NCBI GenBank assembly: GCA_017463665.1
Contig: JAFTOT010000087.1
Coordinates: 5,871-69,870 of the forward strand
Reading direction: 5' to 3'
DNA from: Clostridia bacterium
GTDB taxonomy: Bacteria > Bacillota > Clostridia > Oscillospirales > CAG-272
DNA length: 64,000 nucleotides
Position 1 is the first letter of the stretch. Every line of letters begins with the position of its first letter. Below, one piece after another: positions 28,714 through 49,184 of the stretch. A program made the position numbers and the translations under genes. Below the pieces are notes generated by a model. The model was not told the DNA's origin. It saw only the letters and a list, made by a program, of their open reading frames with translations, and searched no databases.

Positions 28714-28730
28714 TGGATGTATAAGGGAAT

Positions 28731-28766: not shown

Positions 28767-28780
28767 GGAAAGGCTTTACA

Positions 28781-31874: not shown

Positions 31875-34504
31875 GCTTTACATACCCCAACCGTGCGTGC
31901 GCGGCACTCACCGATATCAATCTCACCGTCCATGCGGGAGAGTTTATAACGGTTTGCGGCAAGTCCGGTTGCGGAAAAACAACGCTTCTGCGCCTGCTCA
32001 AAACTGCACTTGCACCACACGGCAAACTGCAGGGCACTATTGATTTCCGAGGCACGCCGCTCGCCGATACGGATGCAAGAACGCAGGCGGCAGGAATAGG
32101 CTTTGTAATGCAGAACCCCGATAACCAAATTGTGACCGACAAGGTGTGGCACGAACTTGCGTTCGGTCTTGAAAGCCTTGGATACCCAACCTCCGAGATA
32201 CGCACACGCGTGTCTGAGATGGCATCGTTCTTCGGTATTCAAACATGGTTTCACAAAAGCGTGATCGAACTCTCGGGCGGTCAAAAGCAACTTTTGAATC
32301 TCGCTTCGGTCATGGTCATGCAGCCGTCCGTCCTGATCTTGGACGAGCCGACGAGTCAGCTGGATCCGATCGCCGCGGAAGATTTTTTGAAAACGCTTGC
32401 AAAGATCAACCGCGAACTCGGCACAACGATCATAATATCCGAGCATCGATTGGAAGACGAAATTCCGATATCCGACCGCGTGGTCGTCATGGATCGCGGC
32501 AGAATCATTGCGAACGCAGAGCCGAAAAAAGTCGGCGAGATCTTAAAAGCAAAACAGCATGATATGTACGCGGCTTTGCCCACGCCGATGCGCATTTACG
32601 GCGCGGTCGCGTCTGAGGCGGAGTGTCCGCTCACGGTTCGGGAAGGCAGGGCATGGCTTGAAAAATACGCCGAGAATAATCTGCTCAACGCCGACTTGAT
32701 ACCAAAAGCCGAGAATAGGAACAGTCCGACAGAAACGGCGATCGAGATAAACGATGCTTGGTTTCGGTATGAAAAGGATCTGCCCGATGTTATCAAGGGG
32801 CTGAATATCAAAATCTACAAGGGCGAACTTTTTACGATGCTCGGCGGCAACGGAACGGGGAAAACAACGGCGCTTTCCCTGATCAGCGGTCTTAACACTC
32901 CGTATCGCGGAGAAATACGCATCAACGGTGAAAACATTTCTAAAATACAGAATTTGTATAACGGCGTTTTGGGCGTTCTTCCGCAGAATCCGCAAAGCCT
33001 GTTTGTGAAAAAGACAGTTTACCTTGACCTTATGGAAATTCTGTCCGAAAGGAAGCTATCCAAAGAGGAAAAAGAAAACAGAGTCAAAAATATATCCGCA
33101 CTTTGCAGAATAGATGCTCTGTTGGGAAGTCATCCTTACGATTTGTCCGGCGGTGAGCAGCAGCGCGCAGCACTCGCAAAGGTGCTCTTGATGTCGCCGC
33201 AGATACTTTTGCTCGACGAGCCGACAAAAGGGCTTGACGCACATTTTAAGCAGATCTTTGCAGATATTCTATGTGACCTGAAAGCAAACGGTGTAACCGT
33301 AGTGATGGTATCGCATGATATCGAATTCTGTGCCGCGTATGCTGACAGATGCGCGATGTTTTTTGACGGAAACATTACGGCGTTCGGAGAGCCGAGAGCG
33401 TTTTTCGCAGGAAAAAACTTTTATACCACGTCTGCAAACAGAATGGCAAGAACAAGACTTCCGAATGCTGTGCTTGCAGAAGATATAATACTTGCTTGCG
33501 GCGGCAGAACAACGAAAAAAGAAAGAAAACATCCAACCGTTGTATGGCTTCCGAAAAACGAAGAAGTACCTGAAAAGAAAACTAAAAGAAAGCTGACACC
33601 CAGGCGGATCCTTTTGGGAGTCATATTTGCTTTGCTTTTTGTCTTGACTCTCTGTATGCAGGAAAAGGCAGTAACCGACGTAGCGATCTCTTTGGCGCAG
33701 GTAGCGGGCATATTGGAATTGGCGGTGTGCCTGATCTGCTTCTTGCCGCAAAAAGAATTCGGTATTGCATGTATAAAGCAACCTGCACATAAGCGGAAGC
33801 TGACAAAACGGACACTTGCCGCCGCCTTTCTGATCCTGCTTGCGATACCGCTTACGATTTATATCGGTACATATTTTTTAGACAACCGAAAGTATTATTT
33901 CATAAGCCTTTTCATCATACTTGAAACAATGATACCTTTCGCTATGGTGTTTGAAAGCAGAAAACCGCAGGCACGGGAGCTTGTCATAATCAGCGCGCTG
34001 TGCGCCATTGCGGTGGCGGGCAGAGCCGCGTTTTTTATGCTGCCGCAGTTTAAACCCGTTACCGCACTCGTCATCATTGCAGGCGTGTGCTTCGGCGGTG
34101 AAACGGGATTTTTGGTGGGAGCGATCACAGGGTTTGTATCGAATTTCTTTTTCGGGCAGGGACCGTGGACGCCGTGGCAGATGTTCGCCTTTGGCATTAT
34201 CGGCTTTATTGCGGGAATACTGTTCAGAAAAGGACTATTGCGAAAAACACGGCTTTCGCTTTGCATATTCGGTTTTTTTGCGGCTCTTGTCATTTACGGC
34301 GGTATTATGAACCCCGCATCGGTACTGATGTATCAGGAGAAAATCACAAAGGAAATGATCCTATACGCATATATAACCGGTATGCCGTTTGATTTGGTGC
34401 ACGCCGCATCCACGAGCTTTTTCTTGTGGTTTGTCGCAGAACCGATGATAGAAAAGCTGGAGAGAATTAAAGTTAAATACGGATTGATCGAACGTATAGT
34501 TTGA
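31847..34504 (+). CDS. Fused ECF ATPase EcfA-EcfA' with C-terminal polytopic (S-component-like) membrane domain
   Basis: GTG start 7 nt after GGAGG. Two ABC cassettes (GKSGCGKTT/LSGGQKQLLNLA/ILDEPTSQLD and GGNGTGKTT/LSGGEQQRAALA/LLLDEPTKGLD). About 290 C-terminal aa of TM helices (...KPVTALVIIAGVCFGGETGFLVGAITGFVSNFFFGQGPWTPWQMFAFG...). Confidence 0.8.
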   Translation: MEDFKIENLSFTYPNRACAALTDINLTVHAGEFITVCGKSGCGKTTLLRLLKTALAPHGKLQGTIDFRGTPLADTDARTQAAGIGFVMQNPDNQIVTDKVWHELAFGLESLGYPTSEIRTRVSEMASFFGIQTWFHKSVIELSGGQKQLLNLASVMVMQPSVLILDEPTSQLDPIAAEDFLKTLAKINRELGTTIIISEHRLEDEIPISDRVVVMDRGRIIANAEPKKVGEILKAKQHDMYAALPTPMRIYGAVASEAECPLTVREGRAWLEKYAENNLLNADLIPKAENRNSPTETAIEINDAWFRYEKDLPDVIKGLNIKIYKGELFTMLGGNGTGKTTALSLISGLNTPYRGEIRINGENISKIQNLYNGVLGVLPQNPQSLFVKKTVYLDLMEILSERKLSKEEKENRVKNISALCRIDALLGSHPYDLSGGEQQRAALAKVLLMSPQILLLDEPTKGLDAHFKQIFADILCDLKANGVTVVMVSHDIEFCAAYADRCAMFFDGNITAFGEPRAFFAGKNFYTTSANRMARTRLPNAVLAEDIILACGGRTTKKERKHPTVVWLPKNEEVPEKKTKRKLTPRRILLGVIFALLFVLTLCMQEKAVTDVAISLAQVAGILELAVCLICFLPQKEFGIACIKQPAHKRKLTKRTLAAAFLILLAIPLTIYIGTYFLDNRKYYFISLFIILETMIPFAMVFESRKPQARELVIISALCAIAVAGRAAFFMLPQFKPVTALVIIAGVCFGGETGFLVGAITGFVSNFFFGQGPWTPWQMFAFGIIGFIAGILFRKGLLRKTRLSLCIFGFFAALVIYGGIMNPASVLMYQEKITKEMILYAYITGMPFDLVHAASTSFFLWFVAEPMIEKLERIKVKYGLIERIV

Positions 34505-34602
34505 CCAATAGTTTGGCAATACCTCACCGTCCAACCTGTAAACGGCGGCTGCGGGATCGATTTTTCAACATCGTTACTTGTCTAACCGGTGTCAAGCGAA
34601 AG

Positions 34603-34650
34603 ACAAACGCCCGAACGAAGCGTCGCTTCATTCGGGCGTTTGTTTATGTT
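34603..34650. terminator. Terminator hairpin between convergent operons
   Basis: 13-bp outer stem ACAAACGCCCGAA/TTCGGGCGTTTGT followed by TTATGTTTT. Confidence 0.7.
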
Positions 34651-35916
34651 TTAGAAAATGATGATCAGGAACTGCGAAACGAGGACAACGGCGATCAGTG
34701 CGATCGGGTAGGTTGCAGCGTATGCGGCTGCAACATCCTCCGTGCCGGCAACGTTGATCAGGGTGCCCAGAGCAGGCGTACTGGTCATACCGCCGGTGAT
34801 GGAACCGAGGTTGTTGAGCAGGCTGAGCTTCAGCACATACTTTGCAAACAGGAAACCGAGGATCATCGGAACGACAGTCATGATGACACCGTATACAAAG
34901 TACATGATATCGAAGTTTGCAACGAAGTCTGCGCCGCCGGGGATACCTGCGCCGATGAGGAAGAGCATCAGACCGAGCTCACGGAAGAGCTTGAGGGTAT
35001 GCTCTTTGGGCATTACGCTCAGTTTGCCGATTCTGCTGAAGTGGCCGAGAACCAGCGAAACGAGCAGGCAGCCACCCGTGGTGGTCAGCGAGAAGCAGGT
35101 GCCGTCAAGACCTGCGCCGCTGAGCGGAATTTTGATCTTGCCGACGATCGTGCCGAGAACGGCAGCGATCGCGAATGCACCGAAACCATGTCCATCCAGC
35201 TCAAGCAGTTTGCCGGTGAAGGTCTTTTTCTGCGCGCCGCTTTCAACGGTGGTGAGCTTTGCACGCTCGGTAGCCATATCAGCTTTCATGAGCTTCGGAA
35301 CGAGCTGTACAAAGAGTACAACACCGATAACGCCGAAGATGTACGCGATACCGTGGCCGACCGAAACGAGGCTGGTGTACTCCGCTGCAACGGTTGCTTT
35401 CGCAGCCGAGAATGCGGGGGTAGAGGTCAGCGAGCCGGAGAGCAGACCAACGATCATCGCGGTAAAGCCATCGGAGGTCTCAATGGACGAGCCGTAGCCG
35501 ATCACATGGCCGATACCGATACAACCTGCAGCTGTGAGTCCGCCGGCGAGAATAACAACAAGACCGAGCAGAACATAGGACTTGAAGTTTTTCTTCATGT
35601 TGCCGAAGAACTTCGGACCCGCGATAAAGCCGACCGAGGTCACGAACAGGATGAGACCGAGGCTTTCCACGATCTCGAGCGACTTGTCGGCAAAGCCGAC
35701 AGATTCGCTCGCGCCTTTGATAACAAGCTGTCCTTCGAGAGAGTCAAAGAACAGTGCGCCGAACAAAAGTGCTACGATAAACACGCCTGCATCTCCGAGC
35801 GATACGCCCTTGATGGTGATACGGCCGAGAGCATAGCCGACAGCCGCGATTGCAAAGATACAGAGCATCAGGAAGGAGATTCCGGTAACCGGAATCACGC
35901 CGCCAAATAAATTCAT
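34651..35916 (-). CDS. AAE-family (aspartate:alanine exchanger / SucE-like) transporter, no TrkA-C domains
   Basis: 421 aa, polytopic, with a two-fold internal repeat typical of Asp-Al_Ex permeases (N-terminus MNLFGGVIPVTGISFLMLCIFAIAAVGYALGRITIKGVSLG). 15 nt downstream of the flavoprotein gene. Confidence 0.7.
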   Translation of the reverse strand: MNLFGGVIPVTGISFLMLCIFAIAAVGYALGRITIKGVSLGDAGVFIVALLFGALFFDSLEGQLVIKGASESVGFADKSLEIVESLGLILFVTSVGFIAGPKFFGNMKKNFKSYVLLGLVVILAGGLTAAGCIGIGHVIGYGSSIETSDGFTAMIVGLLSGSLTSTPAFSAAKATVAAEYTSLVSVGHGIAYIFGVIGVVLFVQLVPKLMKADMATERAKLTTVESGAQKKTFTGKLLELDGHGFGAFAIAAVLGTIVGKIKIPLSGAGLDGTCFSLTTTGGCLLVSLVLGHFSRIGKLSVMPKEHTLKLFRELGLMLFLIGAGIPGGADFVANFDIMYFVYGVIMTVVPMILGFLFAKYVLKLSLLNNLGSITGGMTSTPALGTLINVAGTEDVAAAYAATYPIALIAVVLVSQFLIIIF

Positions 35917-35930
35917 GGTCGTTTACTCCT

Positions 35931-37529
35931 TTATTTTCTTCTGGTATAGTCGGGCAGCAGCTTAGGAGAAACGGTGTCGGTTACGATGCCGGCGTCCGCG
36001 ATCTCTTTTTCAAAGCTTGCAACATGGTCAAGCGTCAGTTTGCCAACGGTGACATCCTTGCAAACCTTGGCAGCGTTTTGACCTGCGCTGCGGCCGAATA
36101 CAATGATGTCCAGGAGCGAGTTGCCCATCAGACGGTTTCTGCCGTGGATACCGCCGACAGCTTCACCTGCAACGAACAGGTTCTTGACATTCGTGGTCAT
36201 GCAGTCCGCATCAATGTCAAGACCGCCGTTCTGGTAGTGCAGGGTAGGATATACGAGGATCGGCTCCTTGCGGATGTCGATGCCATACTTCTCAAACATG
36301 CGCATCATTGCGGGGATGCGCTTTTCGATGGTACCCTCGCCGCCGATCTTCTCGATCATAGGCGTATCCAGCCAAACGCCGCAGCCGTCGCCGGTATCTA
36401 CGCCGTTTTCGCGGGTGGTGCACTCACGGATGATGGATGCAGCCGCAACGTCACGGGTCTCCAGCGGGTGCATGAAGACTTCGCCGTTTGCGTTGACGAG
36501 CTTGGCACCGATGGAACGAACCTTCTCGGTAACGAGCGCGCCGAAGATCTGCTCGGGGTATGCAGCGCCCGTGGGATGGTACTGGAGGGTCTCCGCATAG
36601 AGCAGCTTTGCGCCTGCGCGGTAGCCGAGAACCAGACCGTCAGCGGTAGCGCCGTAGTGGTTGGAGGTGGGGAAGCCCTGATAGTGCATACGACCTGCAC
36701 CGCCTGTAGCGATGATAACGGTCTTTGCCTTTGCAACGAGCAGCTCCTTGGTCTCCATGTTCATCAGGACTGCACCGGCAGCGTTGCCGTTTTCGTCGAG
36801 GATCAGTTCGATCGCGGAGGTGAAGTCTACAACGGGGATGTTACGGTTGAGAACCTCATCGCGCAGGGTACGCATGATCTCAGCGCCCGAGTAGTCCTTT
36901 GCAGCGTGCATACGCTTGCGGGAGGTACCGCCGCCGTGGGTGGTGATCATGGTGCCGTTTTCGTCCTTGTCGAACTCAACGCCGAGGTTGCTCAGCCACT
37001 GGATCGCTTCGGGAGCGTCGCAAACCAGCTTGGAAAGCAGCTCGCGCTTTGCAGCGAAGTGTCCGCCGCCGAACGCATCTACAAAGTGGATCGCGGGCGA
37101 GTCGTTGGGCTTGTCAGCTGCCTGAATACCGCCCTCTGCCATCATGGTGTTGGCATCGCCGATACGCAGCTTGGTAACGATCATAACGTTTGCGCCTGCT
37201 TCGTTTGCTTCGATCGCAGCCGAAGCGCCTGCTCCGCCGCCGCCGATGATGAGAACGTCTACATCATAGTCGGGTGCGGTAAGATCGACCGAGTCAGCGG
37301 TGATGCGGCTGTGTGCCTGCAGGGTAGCAGCCAGTTCCTTCGGAACCTTGTCGCCCTTGTTCGGACCGATCTTGAGGGTGTCGAACTCATCCTGCTTATA
37401 GTCGGGATGGTAAGCAGCCAGCAGATCTTCCTTCTGCTGTGCGGTCATGCGCGCGGGCTCATAAGCAATATTCTTATCTCTTGCTGCTTCTACTGCTGCA
37501 AGAGACTTTTGAAACTTTTCAGAATACAT
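35931..37529 (-). CDS. Fumarate reductase/succinate dehydrogenase/L-aspartate oxidase-superfamily flavoprotein (soluble, non-covalent FAD type)
   Basis: FAD fold DVLIIGGGGAGASAAIEA. Dicarboxylate H-R-H-R set present in order (LQYHPTG, TEKVRSIG, LHYQNGG, GRNRLMGNSLL). Asn replaces the covalent-FAD His (DANTMMAEGG). Confidence 0.8.
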   Translation of the reverse strand: MYSEKFQKSLAAVEAARDKNIAYEPARMTAQQKEDLLAAYHPDYKQDEFDTLKIGPNKGDKVPKELAATLQAHSRITADSVDLTAPDYDVDVLIIGGGGAGASAAIEANEAGANVMIVTKLRIGDANTMMAEGGIQAADKPNDSPAIHFVDAFGGGHFAAKRELLSKLVCDAPEAIQWLSNLGVEFDKDENGTMITTHGGGTSRKRMHAAKDYSGAEIMRTLRDEVLNRNIPVVDFTSAIELILDENGNAAGAVLMNMETKELLVAKAKTVIIATGGAGRMHYQGFPTSNHYGATADGLVLGYRAGAKLLYAETLQYHPTGAAYPEQIFGALVTEKVRSIGAKLVNANGEVFMHPLETRDVAAASIIRECTTRENGVDTGDGCGVWLDTPMIEKIGGEGTIEKRIPAMMRMFEKYGIDIRKEPILVYPTLHYQNGGLDIDADCMTTNVKNLFVAGEAVGGIHGRNRLMGNSLLDIIVFGRSAGQNAAKVCKDVTVGKLTLDHVASFEKEIADAGIVTDTVSPKLLPDYTRRK

Positions 37530-37542
37530 TACAGCGTCCTCC

Positions 37543-38217
37543 TTACTTCTCGATCTCGCGGGTGTTGTACAGCTCTTTCATCTCTTCGATCGGCTTCTGC
37601 ATCAGAGCTTCGATCAGTTCGACGAAGGTGCCGTCCTTGATCTCCTGTACGCGATCGTTCAGATGTGCGCACTCGGGAGCGAGGTACTTACCGTTGAGTC
37701 TGCGCGCGAGCATCGCAACCTGGGGATGCGAGATGCCTGCGGGGCAGCGGGAGGAGCATACGCCGCACATGACACAGTCGAAGGATTCCTCAGCGCACTT
37801 CTCAAAGTCGCCGCGCTGTGCATATGCGATGTACTGCATTACGTTCAGACCCTGGGTACAGCTCTTGGTGCAGGCGTTACAGCCGATGCAGGCATAGATC
37901 TCAGGGTAGAGCTGCATCATGATCGCATCGGTGGGCTTGACCTTTTCCATATCGTATACCTGCTTGACCAGCGGGAAGAAGGGGAGAGTGGCAATATACA
38001 TATTGTCCTCGACCTTGGTCTGGCAAGCAAGGCAGGTCTTCAGTTCGCGTTCGCCCTTGATGCGGTAGATGGTAGCGCAGGCGCCGCAGAAGCCGTTACG
38101 GCATCCGCATCCGCGCACCAGCTGGTAACCCGCATATTCCATGGCGCACATAATTGTCAGATTGCTCGGAACTTCATATTTTTTTCCGAACAGAAAAATA
38201 TTTACCATGTTTTCCAT
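37543..38217 (-). CDS. SdhB/FrdB-like iron-sulfur protein ([2Fe-2S] plus two [4Fe-4S] motifs)
   Basis: ATG 38217 follows AGAGGAG. Motifs CRNGFCGAC...C, CIGCNACTKSC and CVMCGVCSSRCP. Confidence 0.75.
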   Translation of the reverse strand: MENMVNIFLFGKKYEVPSNLTIMCAMEYAGYQLVRGCGCRNGFCGACATIYRIKGERELKTCLACQTKVEDNMYIATLPFFPLVKQVYDMEKVKPTDAIMMQLYPEIYACIGCNACTKSCTQGLNVMQYIAYAQRGDFEKCAEESFDCVMCGVCSSRCPAGISHPQVAMLARRLNGKYLAPECAHLNDRVQEIKDGTFVELIEALMQKPIEEMKELYNTREIEK

Positions 38218-38230
38218 GTTGAATCTCCTC

Positions 38231-39064
38231 TTAATACTCATCCGGCAGTTCGTCCAGCTCATCAAAGCGGAAAACGGGTCCGTCTTTGCAGATGTATTTC
38301 GAGCCGACATTGCATCTACCGCACTTGCCGATGCCGCACTTCATGCGCATCTCAAGCGTGGTGTAAATCTGCGTTTTCTCAAATCCGAGTGCATACAGGC
38401 CATCAAGGGTGAACTTGATCATGATCGGAGGTCCGCAGAGGATCGCCGTCTTGTCGGTGTCAAATCCAAGCTCCTTGACGTAGTTCGGGACAAAGCCGAC
38501 ATGACCGTCCCAGCCCTCCTGCTCGCGGTCGATGGTCAGATGTACATGTACGTTATCATCGTTTGCCCACTCGTCGATGATCTCCTTGTAGTCCAGCAGA
38601 TCATCCTTGCTGCGCGAGCCGTATACGATGTCGATCTTGCCGTAACGGTCGCGGTAGTGACGGCAGTAGTTGATAACCGAGCGCAGAGGTGCGAGACCTA
38701 CGCCGCCCGCGATGAACAGCAGGTTTTTGCCCGCAAACTCATCGTCAACGGGGAAGGGATTGCCGTAAGGACCGCGGATGGTGATCTGCTGACCGGGTTC
38801 TGCCTGATGCAGCCATTCGGTTACGCAGCCGCACTTCTTAATGGAGAACTCCATATATTCTTCGTTGGTGGGGGAGGAGGTGATGGAGAACATCGCCTCG
38901 CCGACACCGGGAACGGACAGCATTGCGCACTGACCGGGGCGATGATCAAACGCCTTTTTACCGTCGGGCGTGACCACGCGGAAGGTCTTGATATCGGGGG
39001 TATCCATACGAACATCGGTAATCACACCGATCTTCGGAATCAAGGGTTCTTGATGATTATGCAT
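38231..39064 (-). CDS. FlxA-like FAD/NAD(P)-binding oxidoreductase with C-terminal [2Fe-2S] (AsrB / sulfhydrogenase-gamma / PyrK-like)
   Basis: RPGQCAMLSVPG...FSITSSP (FAD), LLFIAGGVGLAPL (NAD), CGIGKCGRCNVG cluster. Confidence 0.8.
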   Translation of the reverse strand: MHNHQEPLIPKIGVITDVRMDTPDIKTFRVVTPDGKKAFDHRPGQCAMLSVPGVGEAMFSITSSPTNEEYMEFSIKKCGCVTEWLHQAEPGQQITIRGPYGNPFPVDDEFAGKNLLFIAGGVGLAPLRSVINYCRHYRDRYGKIDIVYGSRSKDDLLDYKEIIDEWANDDNVHVHLTIDREQEGWDGHVGFVPNYVKELGFDTDKTAILCGPPIMIKFTLDGLYALGFEKTQIYTTLEMRMKCGIGKCGRCNVGSKYICKDGPVFRFDELDELPDEY

Positions 39065-40085
39065 TTTCTTTTCCTCCGATCGTTTTCATTACTTTTACGA
39101 TATTCATGGAGATGGGACACTTTGCAAGGCAGCGTCCGCAGCCTACACAGCTGAACATACCGTCGTTATTTTCGGGGAAGTACACCAGCTTGTGCATGAA
39201 GCGCTGACGGAAACGCTCGGTCTGCGTCAGACGGGGCTGACCTGCCGACATCTTGGTGAAGTCGGAGTACATGCAGGAGTCCCAGCAGCGGAAGCGGATA
39301 ACGCCCTTACCGGTATTGAAATCCTTGATGTCATAGCACTGACAGGTGGGACATACAAAGGTGCAGGTGCCGCAGCCGAGGCAGGACTCGGAGAGTTCCT
39401 TCCATTCGGGCGCGTCGAAGTACTCCTTGGTCTTGCCCGCGCCGAACGCGTCGGTGTTCAGGTTAGCCAAAGGCAGCTTTTTCATGGTAGCGGCGATCTT
39501 TTCCTTCTGTGCGTCTACCGCCTCGGTCGAGCACTCCTCGGTCAGCGCGTCGAGCTTTGTCAGCAGTGCAGCGCCCTTTTCGGTATTGCTCTGCCAGAAA
39601 ACTTCGGTTTCGGTCTTCCAGATCGAGATATCGCCTGCGGGAGCTGCGGCATCAATGCCGAAGGTCTGGCAGAAGCAGGTCTCGGTCGGTTTTGTGCAGG
39701 CAGCGGCGATGATAATGCCGTGCTCGCGGCGGGAAGCATAGTAGCTGTCGGTGGGCTCCTTCAGGAACACGCGATCCAGCACGTCAAAGCTCTTGACATC
39801 GCATGCGCGAACGCCAAAAACAACGAAGTCCTCGGAAGCGCTGCGGGTGTCGATGATCTCGATGTTCTTGCCCGAGGTCTTGAACTCGACAAGATTTTCG
39901 GTCTGGGGGAAGAAGAAGTCCTTGGGACCTCTTACGGTGTTGAGCGAATTGCTCCAGGTGAGACCGTCTTCCCACTTGGTATACGCGGTCTTGCCGTCCT
40001 TACCGTCCACGGGGAGATACAGAGATGCGGCTTTTGCGATCTCTGCGAACACGAGGTTCATGGAATCCAGAGAACACTTACGCAT
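39057..40085 (-). CDS. FlxB-like Fe-S protein (AsrA / sulfhydrogenase-beta-like)
   Basis: CLGCGTCTFVCPTCQCYD and CVGCGRCLAKCP motifs. 8-nt overlap with the next gene. Confidence 0.75.
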   Translation of the reverse strand: MRKCSLDSMNLVFAEIAKAASLYLPVDGKDGKTAYTKWEDGLTWSNSLNTVRGPKDFFFPQTENLVEFKTSGKNIEIIDTRSASEDFVVFGVRACDVKSFDVLDRVFLKEPTDSYYASRREHGIIIAAACTKPTETCFCQTFGIDAAAPAGDISIWKTETEVFWQSNTEKGAALLTKLDALTEECSTEAVDAQKEKIAATMKKLPLANLNTDAFGAGKTKEYFDAPEWKELSESCLGCGTCTFVCPTCQCYDIKDFNTGKGVIRFRCWDSCMYSDFTKMSAGQPRLTQTERFRQRFMHKLVYFPENNDGMFSCVGCGRCLAKCPISMNIVKVMKTIGGKENA

Positions 40086-41077
40086 TAGTTGTCACCCCTC
40101 TCAAAAACTTCACCGGGCTCAAGGTCATCGGTGGTGTAGTTGACCAGCGGCGCTCTCGAACCGACCTCTGCACCTGCCTGATAGTCGCCGTAGAAGCTGT
40201 CAATATCCTTGATAAACTTACGGTTGAGCAGGTGGAGCGGGATGTGCTGCGGGCAAACGCGGGAGCACTCGCCGCAGTCGGTGCAGCGTCCTGCAACGTG
40301 GAACGCGCGGATGATGTGGAACATCTTTTCCTCAAAGCTGTTTGCGGGGGACTTGTTCTCCACGCTCGAGTTCGGGTTGTCGAACACGCACTTTTCGCAG
40401 GTGCAGGCCGGGCAGATGTCGCGGCAGGCATTGCAGCGGATGCAGCGGGAGAGCTCATTCTGCCAGAAGGCAAAACGCTCATCGGGCGTCATCGCCTCGA
40501 TCTTGGCAACCTCGTCAAAGCGGGCGGAGTCGATCACGTCGCCGTCCTCGCCCATCAGCTCGTCATAGGCAACGTGCTTTTTGCTCTTGCAGTTGACGCA
40601 GCGCTCTGCGAGCACGTCCTTGGCATCGATCATCACGGGAGCATCCTCGTAGATCGTGGTAACCGCCATTTTTTCGCCGCTGCAATCGATCGAGGAGATA
40701 CCGTCGCCGGCAATAGCCTTGACCTTAGCGATGTCCGCCATACCCTCACAGGGGATGCCGACGGCATAGACCTTTTCGCGGTCAAAACGATGCTCGGTCA
40801 GAAGCTGGTTGAAGCTGTATGTATCGCAAGCTTTCAGGAATACGAGGATCTTGCCCTCGCACTTCTTGGTTTTGGATACGAGATATTTCGAGAAGTTGGC
40901 ACCGCAAAAATCGTTCCAGACGAAGTTTGCTTTCAGTTCGTCCTCGGTATCAAAAACGGCGGGGGTGATGTCATAGTCGAACTCACCCTTTTGCCAGCCG
41001 AGAACGCAGGATACCGTACCGTTTGCAAGCAGAGAAGCTGCTTTTTCGATCAATTGATCACGCGTTATCTTTTGCAT
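40085..41077 (-). CDS. FlxC-like Fe-S protein
   Basis: RCIRCNACRDICPACTCEKC and CTDCGECSRVCP motifs. TAATG junction with the downstream gene. Confidence 0.7.
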   Translation of the reverse strand: MQKITRDQLIEKAASLLANGTVSCVLGWQKGEFDYDITPAVFDTEDELKANFVWNDFCGANFSKYLVSKTKKCEGKILVFLKACDTYSFNQLLTEHRFDREKVYAVGIPCEGMADIAKVKAIAGDGISSIDCSGEKMAVTTIYEDAPVMIDAKDVLAERCVNCKSKKHVAYDELMGEDGDVIDSARFDEVAKIEAMTPDERFAFWQNELSRCIRCNACRDICPACTCEKCVFDNPNSSVENKSPANSFEEKMFHIIRAFHVAGRCTDCGECSRVCPQHIPLHLLNRKFIKDIDSFYGDYQAGAEVGSRAPLVNYTTDDLEPGEVFERGDN

Positions 41078-41499
41078 CGCAGATCCTCCAATCTCTTATT
41101 CTCGCCGAGGGCAGCAACCTTTTCGGCGAAGTCGTTCATGGTAGCGGCAAACTTTGCACCCTCTGCAGCCGATACCCACTCTACGCGGGTACGCTCCTTC
41201 TCGATACCGAGGTAATCGAGCATGGAGAACAGCAGCGCCATACGGCGGCGGGTGTAGTAGTTACCGGAGGTGTAGTGGCAGTCACCGGGGTGGCAGCCGC
41301 AAAGGATAACGCCGTCCGCGCCGCGCTGGAATGCGCGCAGCACAAACATGGGGTTAACACGGCAGGAGCAGGGAACGCGGATGATCTTGACATCCGCAGG
41401 GTAGCTCAGGCGGTTGTTGCCGGCAAGGTCAGCGCCCGCATAGGAGCACCAGTTGCAGCAAAACGCCACGATCAAAGGCTTATATTCTTTTACTTGCAT
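41065..41499 (-). CDS. mvhD: MvhD/FlxD-like [2Fe-2S] electron-transfer protein
   Basis: ATG 41499 follows GGAGGTGG. IVAFCCNWCSYAGADLAG...IRVPCSCRV...ILCGCHPGDCHY is typical of MvhD. Confidence 0.85.
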   Translation of the reverse strand: MQVKEYKPLIVAFCCNWCSYAGADLAGNNRLSYPADVKIIRVPCSCRVNPMFVLRAFQRGADGVILCGCHPGDCHYTSGNYYTRRRMALLFSMLDYLGIEKERTRVEWVSAAEGAKFAATMNDFAEKVAALGENKRLEDLRCKR

Positions 41500-43484
41500 A
41501 TTGCGTCCACCTCCGCGATAATCTGACTGTTCGCAAAGCCGCGAAGATCCATTGCACCCGACGGGCAGGCAACGGTGCAGCATCCGCAACCCTGGCAGAC
41601 TGCGGGATTAACGACCGCGATACGGCGAATTGCCGTGGTTCTGTCGGGCATACGGAACTCTTTGTTTTCATAGGTAATTGCGCCGTAAGGACATACGCGC
41701 TCACACGTGGAGCAGCCGTTACACATGAGCTCGTTGGAGCTTGCAACGCAGGGGTTACCGGTCAGCTTGTCTTTTGCAAGCAGTCCGATGACCTTGGATG
41801 CGGCAGCGCCTGCCTGCGAAACGGTCTCGGGGATGTCCTTCGGTCCCTGGCAGGCACCCGAAAGGAATACACCTGCGGTGGGGCTCTCTACAGGGCGGAG
41901 CTTAGGATGCGCTTCAGTGAAGAAGTCGTTGGTATCCATGCTGGCGGTCAGCATCGTAGCGAGCGGGCGAGCCGACTTGTCGGGCTCGATTGCAGCGGCA
42001 AGAACGACCAGATCCGCGTCGATGTGGAGCTGCTTGTTTGCGAGCAGATCGGATGCCTGGACTTTCAGCTTGTCGCCCTCGGGCGTGACCTTGCCGACCA
42101 TGCCCTTGATGTAGTGCACGCCGTATTCCTCAACGGCACGGCGATAGAACTCGTCGAAGTTCTTACCGGGCGTTCTGACGTCGATGTAGAATACATATAC
42201 GTCGGTGTCCGGATACTTGTCTCTGGTGAGCATTGCGTGCTTTGCGGTGTACATGCAGCAGATCTTCGAGCAGTATTCCTTGCCCTTTTCCGCGCATGCG
42301 TCACAACGGGAGCCGACGCACTGTACAAAGACGATGGTGTGGGGGTGCTTTAAGTCGGAGGGACGGAGCAGCTTGCCCGCTGTGGGGCCTGCAGCGTTGG
42401 TCAGACGCTCGAATTCGAGCGAGGTAATCACGTCCTTGGACTGATTGTATGCGAATTCGTCGAACTTGTCCATGCTGATGGGGTTAAAGCCGGTAGCGAC
42501 AACGATCGCGCCGTACTTCTCCTCGATGAACTCGTCCTGCTGCTTGTAGTCGATCGCACCTGCAGCGCAGACCTTGGAACATACGCCGCACTTGCCGTTT
42601 TTCAGCATGTTACAGTAGTTCGGGTCGATGGTTGCGACCTTCGGAACTGCCTGTGCGAAGGGAATGTAGATGGCGCTGCGGTTGTCCATGCCGAGGTTGA
42701 ACTCGTTGGGAACCTTCTTCATCGGACATTTTTCGGTGCAGGCACCGCAACCCGTGCAGATGTCTTCCTTGACATAGCGGGCATGCTTTTTGATGGTGAC
42801 ATCAAAGTTGCCCACAAAGCCCTTGACATCGGTGACTTCGCTGTAGGAGAAGATGCGGATCTTATCGTTCTGTGCGACGTCTACCATCTTAGGCGTGAGG
42901 ATACATGCTGCGCAGTCGAGGGTCGGGAAGGTCTTGTCGAGCTGTGCCATCTTACCGCCGATGGTCGGCTTCTTCTCTACGATATCGACAGGGAAGCCTG
43001 CGTCAGCGATGTCGAGCGCGGTCTGGATGCCGGCGATACCGCCGCCGATGACCAGCGCACGCTTGGTAACAGGGCTCTCACCGGGGGTAAGCGGCGTGTT
43101 GAGGTTGACCTTTGCAACAGCAGCCTTGCCGAGGATGATTGCCTTCTCGGTACCGGTGACCATGTCCTTATGTACCCACGAGCACTGCTCGCGAATGTTG
43201 GCGATTTCCACCATGTAGGGGTTGATGCCTGCGGCTGCCGCGGTCTTGCGGAAGGTCGCCTCGTGCATACGGGGCGAGCAGGAGCAAACAACGATACCCG
43301 TCAGTTTATGCTCGGCAACGGCATCCTTGATCATGTTCTGACCTGCCTGCGAGCACATGTATTGATAGTTGGTGGAAAAGACGACGCCCGGCTCATTTTT
43401 GAGGGCATCGGATACGGCTTGTACGTCTACGGTGCCTGCGATGTTACTGCCGCACCAACATACAAATACACCAATTCTTTGCAT
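41490..43484 (-). CDS. hdrA: Heterodisulfide reductase subunit A-like flavoprotein (FAD plus multiple [4Fe-4S])
   Basis: MQRIGVFVCWCGSNIAG N-terminus, ALVIGGGIAGIQTALD FAD fold, several CX2CX2CX3C motifs. Confidence 0.9.
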   Translation of the reverse strand: MQRIGVFVCWCGSNIAGTVDVQAVSDALKNEPGVVFSTNYQYMCSQAGQNMIKDAVAEHKLTGIVVCSCSPRMHEATFRKTAAAAGINPYMVEIANIREQCSWVHKDMVTGTEKAIILGKAAVAKVNLNTPLTPGESPVTKRALVIGGGIAGIQTALDIADAGFPVDIVEKKPTIGGKMAQLDKTFPTLDCAACILTPKMVDVAQNDKIRIFSYSEVTDVKGFVGNFDVTIKKHARYVKEDICTGCGACTEKCPMKKVPNEFNLGMDNRSAIYIPFAQAVPKVATIDPNYCNMLKNGKCGVCSKVCAAGAIDYKQQDEFIEEKYGAIVVATGFNPISMDKFDEFAYNQSKDVITSLEFERLTNAAGPTAGKLLRPSDLKHPHTIVFVQCVGSRCDACAEKGKEYCSKICCMYTAKHAMLTRDKYPDTDVYVFYIDVRTPGKNFDEFYRRAVEEYGVHYIKGMVGKVTPEGDKLKVQASDLLANKQLHIDADLVVLAAAIEPDKSARPLATMLTASMDTNDFFTEAHPKLRPVESPTAGVFLSGACQGPKDIPETVSQAGAAASKVIGLLAKDKLTGNPCVASSNELMCNGCSTCERVCPYGAITYENKEFRMPDRTTAIRRIAVVNPAVCQGCGCCTVACPSGAMDLRGFANSQIIAEVDAICK

Positions 43485-43499
43485 TTTGTCTTTTCCTCC

Positions 43500-43892
43500 T
43501 TACTTTGCGTATTTTCTGAACGCGCTGACGAGTGCCTGCTGCGGGATGTCGTCATCCAGCATGGCGGGAACGTCGTCTGCCTTCAAGTGGTTTGCGCCCT
43601 GCTTGCGGATCGCCGCCAGACGCACTGCTTCTACCAGCTTTGCGGGTTCAACGCCGCGGGGGCATCTGTCGATGCAGGCAAAGCAGGACAGGCATCTGTA
43701 CAGGGACTTGGAGTTCAGCAGCGGTTCGATATCGCCGCTCTCCACCATGTTGACAAACTGGTGGGGATGATACTCCATCTCGTCATATGCGGGGCAGGTA
43801 GCGGAGCACTTGCCGCAGCGCATACATTTCTTGGGGTTTACGCCGCTTGTGCGCAGCAGTTCTTCTTGGAGATACTGATTCTTGTTATGCAT
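43500..43892 (-). CDS. hdrC: Heterodisulfide reductase subunit C-like
   Basis: CMRCGKCSATCP and CLSCFACIDRCPRG. Confidence 0.85.
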   Translation of the reverse strand: MHNKNQYLQEELLRTSGVNPKKCMRCGKCSATCPAYDEMEYHPHQFVNMVESGDIEPLLNSKSLYRCLSCFACIDRCPRGVEPAKLVEAVRLAAIRKQGANHLKADDVPAMLDDDIPQQALVSAFRKYAK

Positions 43893-44676
43893 TCGTATCC
43901 TCCTTTACGCCGAGTGCTTCTGCGAGCAGCTCGGTGAAGTATACGACCGGGATCTCCGAGCCGTTCTTGACAAGGTTGTAACGGCAAAGGGGACATGCGG
44001 TCACCATCATCTCGGCACCGGCAGCCGCCGCGTTGCCTGTTACGGCATTGCTCTTCTTCTTGGCAAGCTCGGGGCTCTCCATCGTGACATAGCCGCCGCA
44101 GCATTCGTTGCGGGAAGCGTAGATCACGGGCTGGGCGCCGATGGCACGGATGAAATCTTCGATGATACTGGGGTTTTCGGGATCGTCCATCTGCATGACC
44201 TTGTTCGGGCGGAGAAGCAGGCAGCCGTAGTACGCTGCGATCTTCTTGCCGGTCTGGGGATTTACGACCTTTTCCTTGATCTTGTCAAAGCCGACGAGAT
44301 CGCGGAGCATTTCGAGATAGTGATATACAGCCGTCTCACCGCTGTAGGGTGCTTCGGGCGCCATATAGCGGTTTACCTTGTCGGCAAATTCCGCGTCGGT
44401 CTGCACCTGATGATTGGTCTGCTTGATGACGTTGTGGCAGGCGGAACATACGGTAACGAGCGGCTGCTCCTTATCGTTTGCCGCTTTCAGTGCGCGTACC
44501 GAGGAGAGCTTGGTGGCAACTTCATCGCGCGAGGTGGAGAATACACCGCCGCAGCACTGCCAGTCTTCAATCTCTTCCAGTGTTACGCCCAGTACTTCGG
44601 CACATTTGCGAGCATATGCGTCGAGCTCTTTTGCCTTGGTTTTCAGCGTACAGCCGGGAAAATAACTAACTTTCAT
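43885..44676 (-). CDS. hdrB: Heterodisulfide reductase subunit B-like (two CCG domains)
   Basis: MKVSYFPGC..., DWQCCGG and NECCGGY motifs. The start at ATG 44676 is preferred. Confidence 0.85.
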   Translation of the reverse strand: MKVSYFPGCTLKTKAKELDAYARKCAEVLGVTLEEIEDWQCCGGVFSTSRDEVATKLSSVRALKAANDKEQPLVTVCSACHNVIKQTNHQVQTDAEFADKVNRYMAPEAPYSGETAVYHYLEMLRDLVGFDKIKEKVVNPQTGKKIAAYYGCLLLRPNKVMQMDDPENPSIIEDFIRAIGAQPVIYASRNECCGGYVTMESPELAKKKSNAVTGNAAAAGAEMMVTACPLCRYNLVKNGSEIPVVYFTELLAEALGVKEDTNA

Positions 44677-44712
44677 GTTTATGCGCATTCCTTTCTGAAA
44701 AATTGGAACGCC

Positions 44713-44742
44713 TGTACCCCTTGCCACGGGACAAGGGGTACA
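44713..44742 (-). terminator. Hairpin between fumC and hdrB (possible partial terminator)
   Basis: 11-bp stem TGTACCCCTTG/CAAGGGGTACA. Downstream on the minus strand the T tract is weak (...CCAATTTTTC). Confidence 0.4.
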
Positions 44743-44776
44743 AACGCGCCGCTTGAAAGAGGATCTCTTTCAAATC

Positions 44777-46153
44777 TTATACCATCTGTTCGGGATGGAA
44801 TACTTCGTCAAACTTTTCAGCCGTCAGGAAGCCGAGGGCTACGCATGCTTCCTTCAGAGAAATGTTGTCCTTGAATGCCTTCTTAACGGTCTTTGCTGCG
44901 TTCTCATAGCCGATGTAGGGGTTGAGAGCGGTTACGAGCATCAGGGAGTTGTGCAGGTTGTGATGCATCTTCTCCTTGTTTGCCTTGATGCCCACAGCGC
45001 AGTTCTTGTTGAAGGAGGTGATCGCCTCAGCAAGAAGTCTTGCAGACTGCAGGAAGTTGTAGATGCAGACGGGCATGAATACGTTCAGCTCGAAGTTACC
45101 CTGCGAAGCTGCCATGCCGACAGCAACGTCGTTGCCCATGACCTGAACGGCAACCATGGTTACAGCCTCACACTGGGTGGGGTTGACCTTACCGGGCATG
45201 ATGGAGGAGCCGGGCTCGTTCTCGGGGATAAAGATCTCGCCGAGACCGTCGCGGGGACCGCTTGCCAGCCAACGAACGTCGTTTGCGATCTTCATCATGT
45301 CGCAAGCGAGTGCCTTGATCGCGCCGTGTGCGAATACCAGCTCGTCCTTGGAGGTGAGAGCATGGAACTTGTTGGGAGCGGTAACGAAATCCTTGCCGGT
45401 GATCTTGCTGACTTCCTCAGCAACGCGCTCTGCAAAGCCTGCGGGAGCGTTCAGACCGGTGCCGACAGCGGTGCCGCCGAGCGCCAGCTCATGCAGGGGA
45501 GCGATGGATCTCTCGATCAGTTCAACATCCTTCTCAAGGCTGGAGCGCCAACCGCTGATCTCCTGGCTGAACTTGATGGGCGTTGCATCCTGCAGGTGGG
45601 TTCTACCGCTCTTAACGATGCCCTCGTTCTCCTCTTCGAGGCGAACAAAGGTAGCGATCAGTTCCTTGACAGCGGGGATCAGCTTATCCTCGAGTGCCAG
45701 AACTGCAGCGATGTGCATAGCGGTGGGGAAGGTGTCGTTGGAAGACTGGCTCATGTTGGAGTCATCGTTGGGGTGCAGCAGCTTCTTGTCAAGGATCTGG
45801 TTGCCGCGGTTTGCGATAACTTCGTTTGCGTTCATGTTCGACTGCGTGCCCGAACCGGTCTGCCAAACGACCAGCGGGAAGTGATCGTTGAGCGTGCCTG
45901 CCATTACTTCGTCACAAGCCTGCTTGATCGCACCGAGCTTTTCCTCGGTCATCTTTTCGGGGCGCAGTGCGTTGTTGGCGATGGCAGCTGCCTTCTTCAG
46001 TACGCCGAAAGCGTGAATGATCTCGGCGGGCATGGTCTCGATGCCGACACCGATCTCAAAGTTTTCGTGGCTTCTCTGGGTCTGTGCAGCCCACAGACGG
46101 TCAGCGGGGACTTTTACCTCGCCCATAGAGTCATGTTCAATGCGAAATTCCAT
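44777..46153 (-). CDS. fumC: Class II fumarate hydratase
   Basis: Signature GSSIMPGKVNPTQCEA. 458 aa with full-length fumarase/aspartase family features. Confidence 0.93.
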   Translation of the reverse strand: MEFRIEHDSMGEVKVPADRLWAAQTQRSHENFEIGVGIETMPAEIIHAFGVLKKAAAIANNALRPEKMTEEKLGAIKQACDEVMAGTLNDHFPLVVWQTGSGTQSNMNANEVIANRGNQILDKKLLHPNDDSNMSQSSNDTFPTAMHIAAVLALEDKLIPAVKELIATFVRLEEENEGIVKSGRTHLQDATPIKFSQEISGWRSSLEKDVELIERSIAPLHELALGGTAVGTGLNAPAGFAERVAEEVSKITGKDFVTAPNKFHALTSKDELVFAHGAIKALACDMMKIANDVRWLASGPRDGLGEIFIPENEPGSSIMPGKVNPTQCEAVTMVAVQVMGNDVAVGMAASQGNFELNVFMPVCIYNFLQSARLLAEAITSFNKNCAVGIKANKEKMHHNLHNSLMLVTALNPYIGYENAAKTVKKAFKDNISLKEACVALGFLTAEKFDEVFHPEQMV

Positions 46154-46190
46154 TATTCTATCTTCCTTTCAAATTTAAATAGAAACTATT

Positions 46191-47135: not shown

Positions 47136-47155
47136 AGCTTCCTCACTTTTTAAAT

Positions 47156-48595: not shown

Positions 48596-48849
48596 TCTTC
48601 TGTCTCCAGTTTTTTGAGGATGGTCTCGTTCCAAAAGACCTCAAAGGATTCCGGTGTGACACCGGTGAAAATTTCGTCGTCCACCCGGACGGTTACGCCG
48701 ACCTTGTTGCATTTCCCGATGCAAAAGCTTCCGGCAAGAGTGATGTCGTCTTCCTTATTATAATCGGAGATGGCTTTCTTGAATTTTTCGATCAGCCTTT
48801 CCGATCCTCGGATACAGCAGGCGCTGCCTATGCAGATCTGAATCACCAT
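48592..48849 (-). CDS. Thioredoxin-like [2Fe-2S] ferredoxin (small)
   Basis: 85 aa. CIGSACC...CIGKC (C-x4-C ... C-x3-C). Paralog of the upstream gene. Confidence 0.7.
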   Translation of the reverse strand: MVIQICIGSACCIRGSERLIEKFKKAISDYNKEDDITLAGSFCIGKCNKVGVTVRVDDEIFTGVTPESFEVFWNETILKKLETEE

Positions 48850-48851
48850 GG

Positions 48852-49127
48852 TTAAATTTTTGCTTTGACCTGTTCTGCAAAAAATTCGCCGAGCGTCTCG
48901 GGCGTAACGGAGAATACCTCGTCATCTACCGAGACAGAGACACCGGGCTGGCAGCGTCCCATGCAAAATGCGGCGCCCAGCGTTACCGTGTCTTCAAGTT
49001 TGTTTTCCGCGATCAGGCTCTGCAGACCTTCTACGACCTGGCGCGAGCCCTTCAGATGGCAGGAGCTGCCAATACATACTGTGATTTTAATAATAATAAC
49101 CCCCTTCGTGCGTTTTGGGGTTGACAA
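48852..49127 (-). CDS. Thioredoxin-like [2Fe-2S] ferredoxin (small), start uncertain
   Basis: CIGSSCH...CMGRC. The ORF-track start is a TTG without an RBS. An AAGGGGG RBS sits just before the ...IIIKITVC... codons, so the true start may be a non-canonical codon downstream. Confidence 0.6.
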   Translation of the reverse strand: MSTPKRTKGVIIIKITVCIGSSCHLKGSRQVVEGLQSLIAENKLEDTVTLGAAFCMGRCQPGVSVSVDDEVFSVTPETLGEFFAEQVKAKI

Positions 49128-49184
49128 TGAACTTTTTATACAGAAAAATAATCCATAACTAACCCATCTTACACAATTGTTATT

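Follow-up and report, generated by a model that had tools for sequence, protein, structure and literature searches.

Why should an Flx-Hdr electron-transfer module share an operon with a fumarate reductase-like pair that has no membrane anchor, and what reaction would such a system carry out? This question is raised by a 64,000-nucleotide (nt) stretch from a Clostridia bacterium (GTDB order Oscillospirales; assembly GCA_017463665.1, contig JAFTOT010000087.1, positions 5,871 to 69,870 of the forward strand), the whole of which is called the window here and whose numbering is used throughout; all genes of the operon lie on its minus strand. Our answer, which we hold with slightly more than even confidence, is that the core of this approximately 14.5-kb operon encodes a cytoplasmic, quinone-independent branch from oxaloacetate to succinate with an electron-bifurcating Flx-Hdr-Frd complex. 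The most likely reaction would be 2 NADH + Fd(ox) + fumarate + 2 H+ -> 2 NAD+ + Fd(red, 2 e-) + succinate, in which NADH is reduced nicotinamide adenine dinucleotide and Fd is ferredoxin. Bifurcation had been proposed in a first-pass annotation of this DNA, and our in-silico checks supported it; the reaction as written there was unbalanced, since two NADH are needed. The bifurcating reading appears to be the best available explanation of the features described below.

Ten closely packed open reading frames had been reported between 34651 and 44676, and all ten were found there on the minus strand. In order of transcription they are as follows.

43885-44676, minus strand: HdrB, with two CCG domains and predicted non-cubane [4Fe-4S] sites; both C..CC..CxxC motifs are intact.
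43500-43892, minus strand: HdrC, with two [4Fe-4S] motifs (2 x CxxCxxCxxxCP).
41490-43484, minus strand: HdrA, with the flavin adenine dinucleotide (FAD) motif GGGIAG and ferredoxin domains; HdrA2 model NF040770, 780 bits against a 1100-bit cut-off.
41065-41499, minus strand: FlxD, MvhD/FlpD-like; PF02662, 187 bits.
40085-41077, minus strand: FlxC-like iron-sulfur (Fe-S) protein, from the Pfam/NCBIfam profile search.
39057-40085, minus strand: FlxB-like Fe-S protein that resembles sulfhydrogenase beta and AsrA; Fer4_22.
38231-39064, minus strand: FlxA-like NAD(P)H/FAD/[2Fe-2S] protein; FAD_binding_6, NAD_binding_1 and DHODB [2Fe-2S] domains.
37543-38217, minus strand: FrdB-like Fe-S subunit of 224 amino acids (aa), with a [2Fe-2S] motif and two full CxxCxxCxxxC(P) motifs.
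35931-37529, minus strand: FrdA-like flavoprotein, 532 aa; FAD_binding_2.
34651-35916, minus strand: AAE-family permease, 421 aa; two Asp-Al_Ex repeats (PF06826), TIGR01625 at 123 bits against a 72-bit cut-off.

The junctions agreed with the earlier description as well. A TAATG claimed near 40085 is present at 40087-40083, the 8-nt overlap at 39057-39064 and the 10-nt overlap at 41490-41499 were both borne out, and the gaps at 37530-37542 and 35917-35930 measure 13-14 nt. The flxA-frdB junction (38231/38217) was checked for termination and consists of a 13-nt gap with a ribosome-binding site and without a terminator-like site. There is no space for an FrdC/D anchor, as had been claimed, and the permease is the sole membrane protein of the operon.

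We found that the upper part of the operon contains all seven subunit types of FlxABCD-HdrABC by Pfam, NCBIfam and motif scan, with intact cofactor motifs and with the flx genes contiguous with hdr. FlxA is predicted to be the NADH entry point and HdrA is a candidate bifurcating flavoprotein. The best NCBIfam match of HdrB was the CCG-type SdhE subunit of a fumarate reductase.

The flavoprotein was aligned with solved SdhA, FrdA and NadB chains and with the E. coli MG1655 FrdA, SdhA and NadB sequences. From this alignment, the catalytic residues H318 and T320 (the HPT motif), E335, R338, R359, H431 and R466 are kept, and FrdA His232, Thr234, Glu245, Arg287, His355 and Arg390 correspond to H318, T320, E335, R359, H431 and R466. 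The first-pass annotation had recognised a complete H-R-H-R dicarboxylate set, all residues of which are indeed kept, but it had counted the Arg of the TEKVRSIG motif within that set. This residue, R338, aligns with the proton-relay Arg beside E. coli FrdA Glu245, and the equivalent of the proton donor Arg287 is the invariant R359 in LETRDVAAA; because R359 is also conserved, the catalytic set remains complete. It was further confirmed that an Asn (Asn127) occupies the alignment column of the covalent-FAD His, and the FAD is predicted to be bound non-covalently. Pfam gave no match to the C-terminal Succ_DH_flav_C domain (PF02910) in the flavoprotein, which is extended at its N-terminus by 90 aa that include a conserved HPDY...G-x-N-x-G motif. 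An AlphaFold2 model was confident over the whole protein including the extension (pLDDT 89.9, pTM 0.90), and its top match among solved structures was E. coli FrdA (1kf6_A; TM-score 0.71).

No NCBIfam model attained its cut-off for the flavoprotein. TfrA (NF004900) was the best at 348 bits against a 718-bit cut-off, followed by sdhA/frdA at 281 bits and nadB (TIGR00551) at 277 against 453. The similarity of the last two scores, together with the L-aspartate oxidase labels that some relatives bear in some sources, would favour the view that the protein is an L-aspartate oxidase or another enoate or dicarboxylate oxidoreductase, or that the system runs oxidatively by confurcation; TfrA is drawn oxidatively in some archaeal papers (PMC9723716). 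We regard this view as very unlikely. The column of NadB Glu121 holds Gly199, the gene was paired with that of an FrdB-like Fe-S subunit in 75 of 75 close relatives, and the neighbours in different lineages are mdh and fumC, fumarase and malic enzyme, or a reductive tricarboxylic acid (rTCA) cluster, while the reverse reaction would be endergonic by 33-49 kJ/mol at the potentials used below. L-aspartate oxidase identity was therefore rejected on the missing Glu121, the nadB score below its cut-off and the constant FrdB partner, and the earlier check that the flavoprotein should fall outside L-aspartate oxidase came out in favour of the fumarate reductase reading.

In a rough neighbour-joining tree, the window flavoprotein grouped with sequences from Bathyarchaeota- and Asgard-labelled metagenome-assembled genomes (MAGs), a gammaproteobacterial MAG and Nitrospiraceae, and this clade stood apart from E. 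coli NadB, from E. coli FrdA/SdhA and from classical relatives of 580-600 aa. The protein is thus placed in a distinct clade of what are predicted to be soluble two-subunit (AB-type) fumarate reductases, the genes of which lie in TCA-type neighbourhoods. An identical flavoprotein was encountered on seven ENA metagenome contigs.

The small subunit aligned with E. coli FrdB and SdhB at the [2Fe-2S] and first cluster motifs. Because it has a full CxxCxxCxxxCP at the position of the [3Fe-4S] site of quinol:fumarate reductase and succinate:quinone reductase, a [4Fe-4S] cluster is predicted there. Its C-terminal helix, which ends in REIEK, is family-specific and conserved from this Clostridium to the Asgard and Bathyarchaeota sequences. 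A 727-aa protein from NCBI metagenome data (P0121) represents a natural FrdB-FrdA fusion, which could also be a frameshift or assembly artefact.

The NCBIfam TfrB model was matched piecewise, with profile positions 19-148 in FrdB, 133-220 in HdrC and 414-487 in HdrB. TfrB can be regarded as a Rosetta-stone fusion of these modules, and it thereby gives a characterised-enzyme precedent for a direct path from HdrB to FrdB. Pfam found no CCG domain in the 224-aa FrdB, which the TfrB model matched in profile positions 19-148 only. These data bear on a methanogen-like arrangement in which two enzymes would be joined by a soluble thiol/disulfide carrier, with Flx-Hdr reducing a disulfide and a thiol:fumarate reductase re-oxidising the thiols. 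TfrA is the top NCBIfam match of the flavoprotein, and Flx-Hdr has been described as a heterodisulfide/DsrC-type reductase, with thiols drawn as the acceptor for the P. thermosuccinogenes system (PMC7282089). However, an FrdB without a CCG domain would by the known Tfr mechanism oxidise no thiols, HdrB is the only CCG protein, no gene for a DsrC-like protein or a thiol carrier lies in the unit, archaeal loci have hdrB next to frdB and overlapping it, and the TfrA score is far under its cut-off. We consider a thiol-linked pair quite improbable, and infer a thiol-free path from HdrB to FrdB within the bifurcating complex.

We then assessed whether the association of frdBA with hdr-flx is conserved. 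With one genome per species scanned, close relatives of the flavoprotein were encoded in at least 598 stretches, of which the best 80 (81-92% identical) were used; gene counts were obtained by tblastn with the window proteins and include only loci with enough flank. The best 80 came from Oscillospirales-type MAGs of gut and rumen that bear the labels Acutalibacteraceae, Oscillospiraceae, Congzhengia, Ructibacterium and Ca. Parachristensenella, and from the cultured Yeguia hominis NSJ-40. We found frdB in 75/75 relatives, flxA in 68/69 (the raw count of 69 held one spurious match of 27% identity in locus L060), flxB in 66/67, flxC in 62/63, flxD in 58/59, hdrA in 54/55, and hdrC and hdrB each in 53/54. 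The upstream genes fumC and mdh were present in 49 and 44 of 52 relatives, and the permease gene was directly 3' of frdA in 48 of 73. The Hdr-Flx subunits were 73-97% identical across 54-69 species-level loci. The co-conservation on which the first-pass annotation had made its proposal depend was therefore observed, with frdBA following hdr-flx in 53 of the 54 close relatives; because the order is kept to this degree across species-level loci, it is not due to chance. The sole exception is L060 (a Congzhengia MAG, 8079-11605), in which frdBA follows genes for a CitMHS di/tricarboxylate transporter and enzyme I of the phosphotransferase system.

Among distant relatives, searched as 50%-identity representatives, the flavoprotein family with the N-terminal extension was found to be small. 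Its archaeal branch, from Bathyarchaeota- and Asgard-labelled MAGs, is 55% identical to the window flavoprotein. A metagenome scan for this archaeal type gave 80 loci that are 62-77% identical to an Asgard sequence, 58 of them with room upstream. In 39 of these 58 the genes hdrC-hdrB lie directly upstream of frdB, and Hdr genes occur elsewhere in another 10; across the scan, fumarase and malic enzyme were each recorded in 15 loci, mvhA in 10 and Flx-like genes in 3. These counts, together with the contiguity in 53 of 54 close relatives despite other shuffling, and with the TfrB fusion, argue against the possibility that the two modules are co-transcribed and functionally independent, with Flx-Hdr serving another acceptor and FrdBA fed otherwise, for example by reduced ferredoxin. 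A shared operon is no proof of a complex, and some lineages have FrdBA on its own or beside different partners, as described below; even so, we give functional independence little credence.

The archaeal-type neighbourhoods differ mainly in the genes beside hdrCB-frdBA. In the Asgard locus L085 (JBNGVH010000002.1, 2563-11656) the order is hdrA, mvhD, mvhG, mvhA, hycI, hdrC, hdrB, frdB, frdA, and the order hdrA-mvhD-mvhG-mvhA-(hycI)-hdrC-hdrB-frdB-frdA was also seen in L093, L098, L107, L111, L119, L143, L155, L156 and L169. This suggests an H2-driven Mvh-Hdr complex with fumarate as a putative acceptor. Another cluster of that Asgard genome (L087, 4612-9243) reads hdrC, hdrB, hdrA, a gene for a 999-aa protein, mvhD, an FrhB-like gene, frdB and frdA, an arrangement also found in L105. 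The 999-aa protein is an Fe-S and double Pyr_redox_2 flavoprotein and the FrhB-like protein is of the F420 type; together with MvhD they may constitute a third kind of electron-input module. In a variant (L128, L131, L132, L133, L137, L141 and L150), the 999-aa protein gene, hdrC, hdrB and mvhG lie about 3 kb downstream of frdBA. L136, one of the loci with Flx-like genes, has a complete series of mvhD, flxC, flxB, flxA, hdrA, hdrC, hdrB, frdB and frdA. One Bathyarchaeota neighbourhood contains malic enzyme, fumarase alpha and beta, frdB and frdA, and a second contains frdB, frdA and an HdrA-MvhD fusion. As a separate observation, the Asgard hdrA of L085 has an in-frame TGA at 4141-4143, downstream of which good HdrA similarity resumes; this could reflect selenocysteine, stop-codon recoding, a sequencing error or a pseudogene.

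Variable input modules beside a constant HdrCB-FrdBA are the pattern expected if HdrCB-FrdBA is a conserved high-potential arm. We tentatively propose, with somewhat less than even confidence, that HdrC-HdrB-FrdB-FrdA is an ancient cassette shared by the two domains that makes fumarate an acceptor of HdrA bifurcation, while Flx, Mvh and FrhB-like inputs are swapped. The inputs may be FlxABCD for NADH in the at least 598 stretches, mostly from gut and rumen Clostridia, and MvhAGD for H2 or the FrhB-like protein in the archaeal-type branch.

The catalytic pair was also encountered outside such clusters. A gammaproteobacterial locus carries frdBA with a NuoF-like gene and without Hdr, and the gammaproteobacterial P0129 group (which includes clam-symbiont- and Chromatiales-labelled MAGs), at 47% identity, shares the N-terminal extension and the Asn that replaces the covalent-FAD His. 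A Nitrospiraceae rTCA cluster (aclBA-acn-idh-frdBA-sucCD) also has no Hdr, and in L089 and L090 frdBA stands alone with no Hdr nearby. The L089 proteins P0135/P0512 are 43% identical, with an FrdB-like neighbour, and their cluster includes a protein of Prochlorococcus sp. MIT 1201. Because FrdBA also occurs without Hdr, Hdr is not obligatory for the catalytic module; FrdBA has the appearance of a soluble fumarate reductase module that can be moved between settings, most often C4-dicarboxylate or TCA ones, and its commonest partner is HdrCB together with HdrA and a variable input.

Upstream of hdrB, the conserved unit continues on the same strand. The first-pass annotation had correctly placed fumC and a dehydrogenase gene of the lactate/malate dehydrogenase (LDH/MDH) family there, but its limit of ten genes was too narrow, as the conserved unit also takes in mdh and fumC. 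The hydrogenase gene, mdh and fumC are spaced by 20-100 nt, and transcription of the unit probably begins near 49130, with two [2Fe-2S] proteins and the hydrogenase at its head.

48852-49127, minus strand: thioredoxin-like [2Fe-2S] ferredoxin, 91 aa, start codon uncertain; Pfam PF01257.
48592-48849, minus strand: second thioredoxin-like [2Fe-2S] ferredoxin, 85 aa; Pfam PF01257.
47156-48634, minus strand: group B monomeric [FeFe] hydrogenase; TIGR04105, full-length, 566 bits against a 450-bit cut-off.
46191-47135, minus strand: LDH-like enzyme, probably a malate dehydrogenase; passes L-LDH cut-offs in NCBIfam, with Arg at LDH position 102, GVARKPGQSRLDL.
44777-46153, minus strand: class II fumarate hydratase FumC; TIGR00979, 716 bits against a 665-bit cut-off.

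The hydrogenase, which has Fe_hyd_lg_C and Fer4 domains, starts with TTG at 48634 or ATG at 48594. A group B [FeFe] hydrogenase adjoins the cluster in at least 10 relatives, and in most others the 10-kb flank ends before its position could appear. Arg at LDH position 102, which we take from LDH/MDH enzymology to mark an oxaloacetate/malate enzyme, and the gene's context indicate that 46191-47135 probably encodes a malate dehydrogenase; automatic annotation would probably call it LDH.

The proposed bifurcating complex would operate as follows. MDH and FumC would supply fumarate, and NADH would be oxidised at FlxA, from which electrons would pass through the Fe-S clusters of FlxB, FlxC and FlxD to the FAD of HdrA. 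HdrA would split each electron pair: the high-potential electron would run through HdrC, the CCG clusters of HdrB and the clusters of FrdB to the non-covalent FrdA FAD and on to fumarate, and the low-potential electron would reduce ferredoxin, with two rounds per net reaction. The reduced ferredoxin would probably be re-oxidised by the unit's group B [FeFe] hydrogenase with release of H2, an outlet suggested by the position of this gene and those of the two [2Fe-2S] proteins at the start of the unit; an Rnf complex encoded at another place in the genome could take over this role instead. The AAE permease would export succinate or exchange it for another C4-dicarboxylate. The AAE-family label given earlier held, on the two repeats and the TIGR01625 score, while the AAE equivalog models (approximately 550-560 aa) left this 421-aa protein far under their cut-offs, with matches that span only the two repeats. 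Succinate export or C4-dicarboxylate exchange is accordingly our guess at its function.

The standard potentials are -320 mV for NAD and -420 to -500 mV for ferredoxin. That of the fumarate/succinate couple (E0') is +33 mV (PMC5861303). The free energies calculated are -68 kJ/mol for NADH to fumarate and +19 to +35 kJ/mol for NADH to ferredoxin, which leaves a net -49 to -33 kJ/mol. If the system were instead a non-bifurcating NADH:fumarate reductase, in which Flx-Hdr is an Fe-S/flavin wire that reduces no ferredoxin, the surplus energy would be lost and approximately -68 kJ/mol would go to waste. For such a wire speak the relatives of the catalytic pair that sit beside a simple NuoF-like NADH module without Hdr, the lack of a ferredoxin gene between hdr and frd, and the HdrA homologues that are not known to bifurcate. 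Seven extra subunits, strongly conserved and including a full-length HdrA with ferredoxin domains, would nevertheless be costly for a wire, and the unit contains a ferredoxin-type hydrogenase and two [2Fe-2S] proteins. We therefore rate the wire as unlikely.

Three further features were mapped at the boundaries of the unit and within it.

49185-49213, minus strand: sigma-70-like promoter candidate upstream of the unit's first gene, TTGCAA-17-TAGAAT with TG; a consensus match only.
44708-44747, minus strand: GC-rich 18-bp hairpin followed by a T-run, between fumC and hdrB.
34603-34643, minus strand: strong intrinsic-terminator-like hairpin of 19 bp that closes the unit after the permease gene.

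The fumC-hdrB spacer of the window is 100 nt long; a smaller hairpin precedes the 18-bp one, and approximately 30 nt remain to the hdrB start codon. Among 51 relatives, this spacer was 13-51 nt long without a strong hairpin in most, and 13-35 nt in the majority, while a few have unrelated hairpins of 90-160 nt. A role as a conserved attenuator was thus ruled out. Because most relatives have a short spacer with a ribosome-binding site, the hairpin is lineage-specific and marks no conserved boundary; it could act in partial termination or in RNA stability, and may give the genes before and after it in the operon differing expression levels. An Rfam scan of 34400-49400 returned no known RNA element.

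Several of these observations weigh against the bifurcating reading. HdrA homologues do not always bifurcate, and the NCBIfam scores of HdrA, HdrB, HdrC and the flavoprotein all fall under curated cut-offs, which for the Hdr equivalogs derive from methanogen enzymes. FrdBA occurs without Hdr in L060, the gammaproteobacterial locus, the Nitrospiraceae cluster, L089 and L090. A terminator-like hairpin stands between fumC and hdrB in the window, the permease is missing from approximately one third of relatives, and the link to the hydrogenase was visible in a minority of the inspected loci, the 10-kb flanks being too short. Our literature search also found no biochemical demonstration of a bifurcating fumarate reductase.

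Other genes lie beyond the operon on the plus strand. A 909-aa fusion of two ATP-binding cassette ATPase domains with an energy-coupling factor (ECF) riboflavin-type S component (31775-34504) is convergent to the operon end, and an ECF riboflavin S component also adjoins the distant frdBA pair in L090 (6355-6873); these neighbours could be a coincidence or could be linked to the flavin demand of the system. The region 22894-30340 encodes a 1939-aa protein with SLH, FIVAR and Listeria-Bacteroides repeats and a 519-aa SLH protein, which are probably cell-surface proteins unrelated to the operon.

If the complex bifurcates, quinone-less Clostridia would recover part of the energy of fumarate reduction as reduced ferredoxin, which could be used for H2 release or Rnf-driven ion pumping. 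Models of succinate and H2 flux in gut and rumen would change, given that hundreds of Oscillospirales species, most of them uncultured, carry the operon, and there would be an answer to what HdrABC reduces outside methanogens and sulfate reducers. The cassette proposal, if true, would supply a physiological acceptor for many "orphan" HdrABC complexes of non-methanogens, and in the window it would make the hydrogenase an outlet for NADH-driven H2 evolution paid for by fumarate reduction. Without bifurcation, the system would still be a distinct and widespread soluble NADH-linked fumarate reductase. Direct testing is possible in the cultured carriers Yeguia hominis NSJ-40 (CGMCC 1.32813), whose description gives no fermentation products, and P. 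thermosuccinogenes, for which CRISPR interference is available (PMC9044749).

Compared with known systems, the flavoprotein and FrdB share with E. coli FrdABCD the catalytic His/Thr/Glu/Arg/Arg/His/Arg set and the [2Fe-2S] and first [4Fe-4S] motifs. They differ from it by the absence of anchors and of Succ_DH_flav_C, by Asn127, by the 90-aa extension and by the 4-Cys motif, and no quinone is expected. The structure of the methanogen MvhAGD-HdrABC complex was reportedly solved by Wagner et al. in 2017. It has the same HdrABC-MvhD core and follows the same logic, in which HdrB faces the high-potential acceptor and HdrA faces ferredoxin; however, its input is H2 through a [NiFe] hydrogenase and its acceptor is CoM-S-S-CoB, the heterodisulfide of coenzymes M and B, whereas the window would have NADH as input through Flx and fumarate as putative acceptor through FrdBA. 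Hydrogenobacter thermophilus is said to possess a soluble five-subunit NADH-dependent fumarate reductase (Miura et al., 2008). By description, this enzyme is a cytoplasmic, multi-subunit, NADH-driven precedent without quinone, but its genes are dispersed with no HdrA/Flx link, and bifurcation was not proposed for it. An "ABCDE" type of fumarate reductase is mentioned in PMC13147460.

Methanothermobacter TfrAB is described as a soluble enzyme with CCG clusters, an SdhB-like chain and a flavoprotein (Heim et al. 1998, as cited in PMC8163825). TfrB carries the CCG domains itself, whereas the window has them on the separate HdrB. Neither the CCG fusion of TfrB nor a TfrA score over its cut-off was found for the window proteins, and Tfr, which works with CoM-SH and CoB-SH, is not energy-conserving. 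The FlxABCD-HdrABC of Desulfovibrio vulgaris Hildenborough was proposed to be bifurcating (Ramos et al. 2015, as cited in PMC7282089 and PMC6315080). It has the same seven subunit types and domains, with the order inverted to hdrBCA-flxDCBA in the window. For this sulfate reducer, DsrC or a heterodisulfide was proposed as the acceptor during ethanol metabolism; the window has no evident DsrC and joins a fumarate reductase to the module.

In a paper on Asgard archaea (PMC8163825), mvhADG-hdrABC and a cytoplasmic fumarate reductase appear as separate entries, and no acceptor is assigned to Hdr. In the literature searched, we found no account of archaeal frdBA clusters linked to Mvh, Flx or FrhB and none of the spread of the operon in gut and rumen Oscillospirales. 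The P. thermosuccinogenes CRISPR interference and cofactor papers and a review of energy conservation in fermentation made no mention of an Flx-Hdr-linked fumarate reductase.

Both the architecture and the bifurcation hypothesis have been published for tubeworm symbionts and P. thermosuccinogenes, and the window is a further member of this group. Tubeworm symbionts (Ca. Endoriftia) and Thioflavicoccus mobilis have rTCA clusters with tfrAB set among flxABCD-hdrABC, for which a joint complex was proposed in 2019 (PMC6315080). Co-expression of tfrAB and flx-hdr is attributed to PMC11636981 by PMC13147460, in which the bifurcating idea was, in April 2026, still a suggestion backed by co-expression. 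The idea of coupling NADH oxidation to fumarate and ferredoxin reduction is the same, and gammaproteobacterial MAGs occur in the window's flavoprotein family, the likeness to Endoriftia and Thioflavicoccus being drawn from their description. The tubeworm cluster serves autotrophic CO2 fixation, with korABCD and aclAB, whereas the window would serve fermentative succinate formation; the one gammaproteobacterial locus that we inspected, with its NuoF-like gene and no Hdr, is unlike the tubeworm clusters.

A published parallel with the same gene series is the "succinate operon" of P. thermosuccinogenes, described in 2020: a fumarate hydratase gene is followed by the seven of Flx-Hdr, by two for fumarate reductase and by one for a hypothetical membrane protein that was taken as a succinate transporter. 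The operon is expressed, approximately 4-fold up under CO2 limitation, in a host that produces succinate (PMC7282089). The coupling of fumarate and ferredoxin reduction was proposed for it in a 2019 preprint by Koendjbiharie and van Kranenburg (doi 10.20944/preprints201912.0288.v1), as cited in PMC7282089. By the published description its gene order is the same as in the window, and the coupling proposal is the same as ours. Its host is a thermophilic member of the Hungateiclostridiaceae, whereas the window comes from a mesophilic gut Oscillospirales/Acutalibacteraceae-like MAG, and to the P. thermosuccinogenes gene series the window unit adds MDH, a group B [FeFe] hydrogenase and two [2Fe-2S] proteins.

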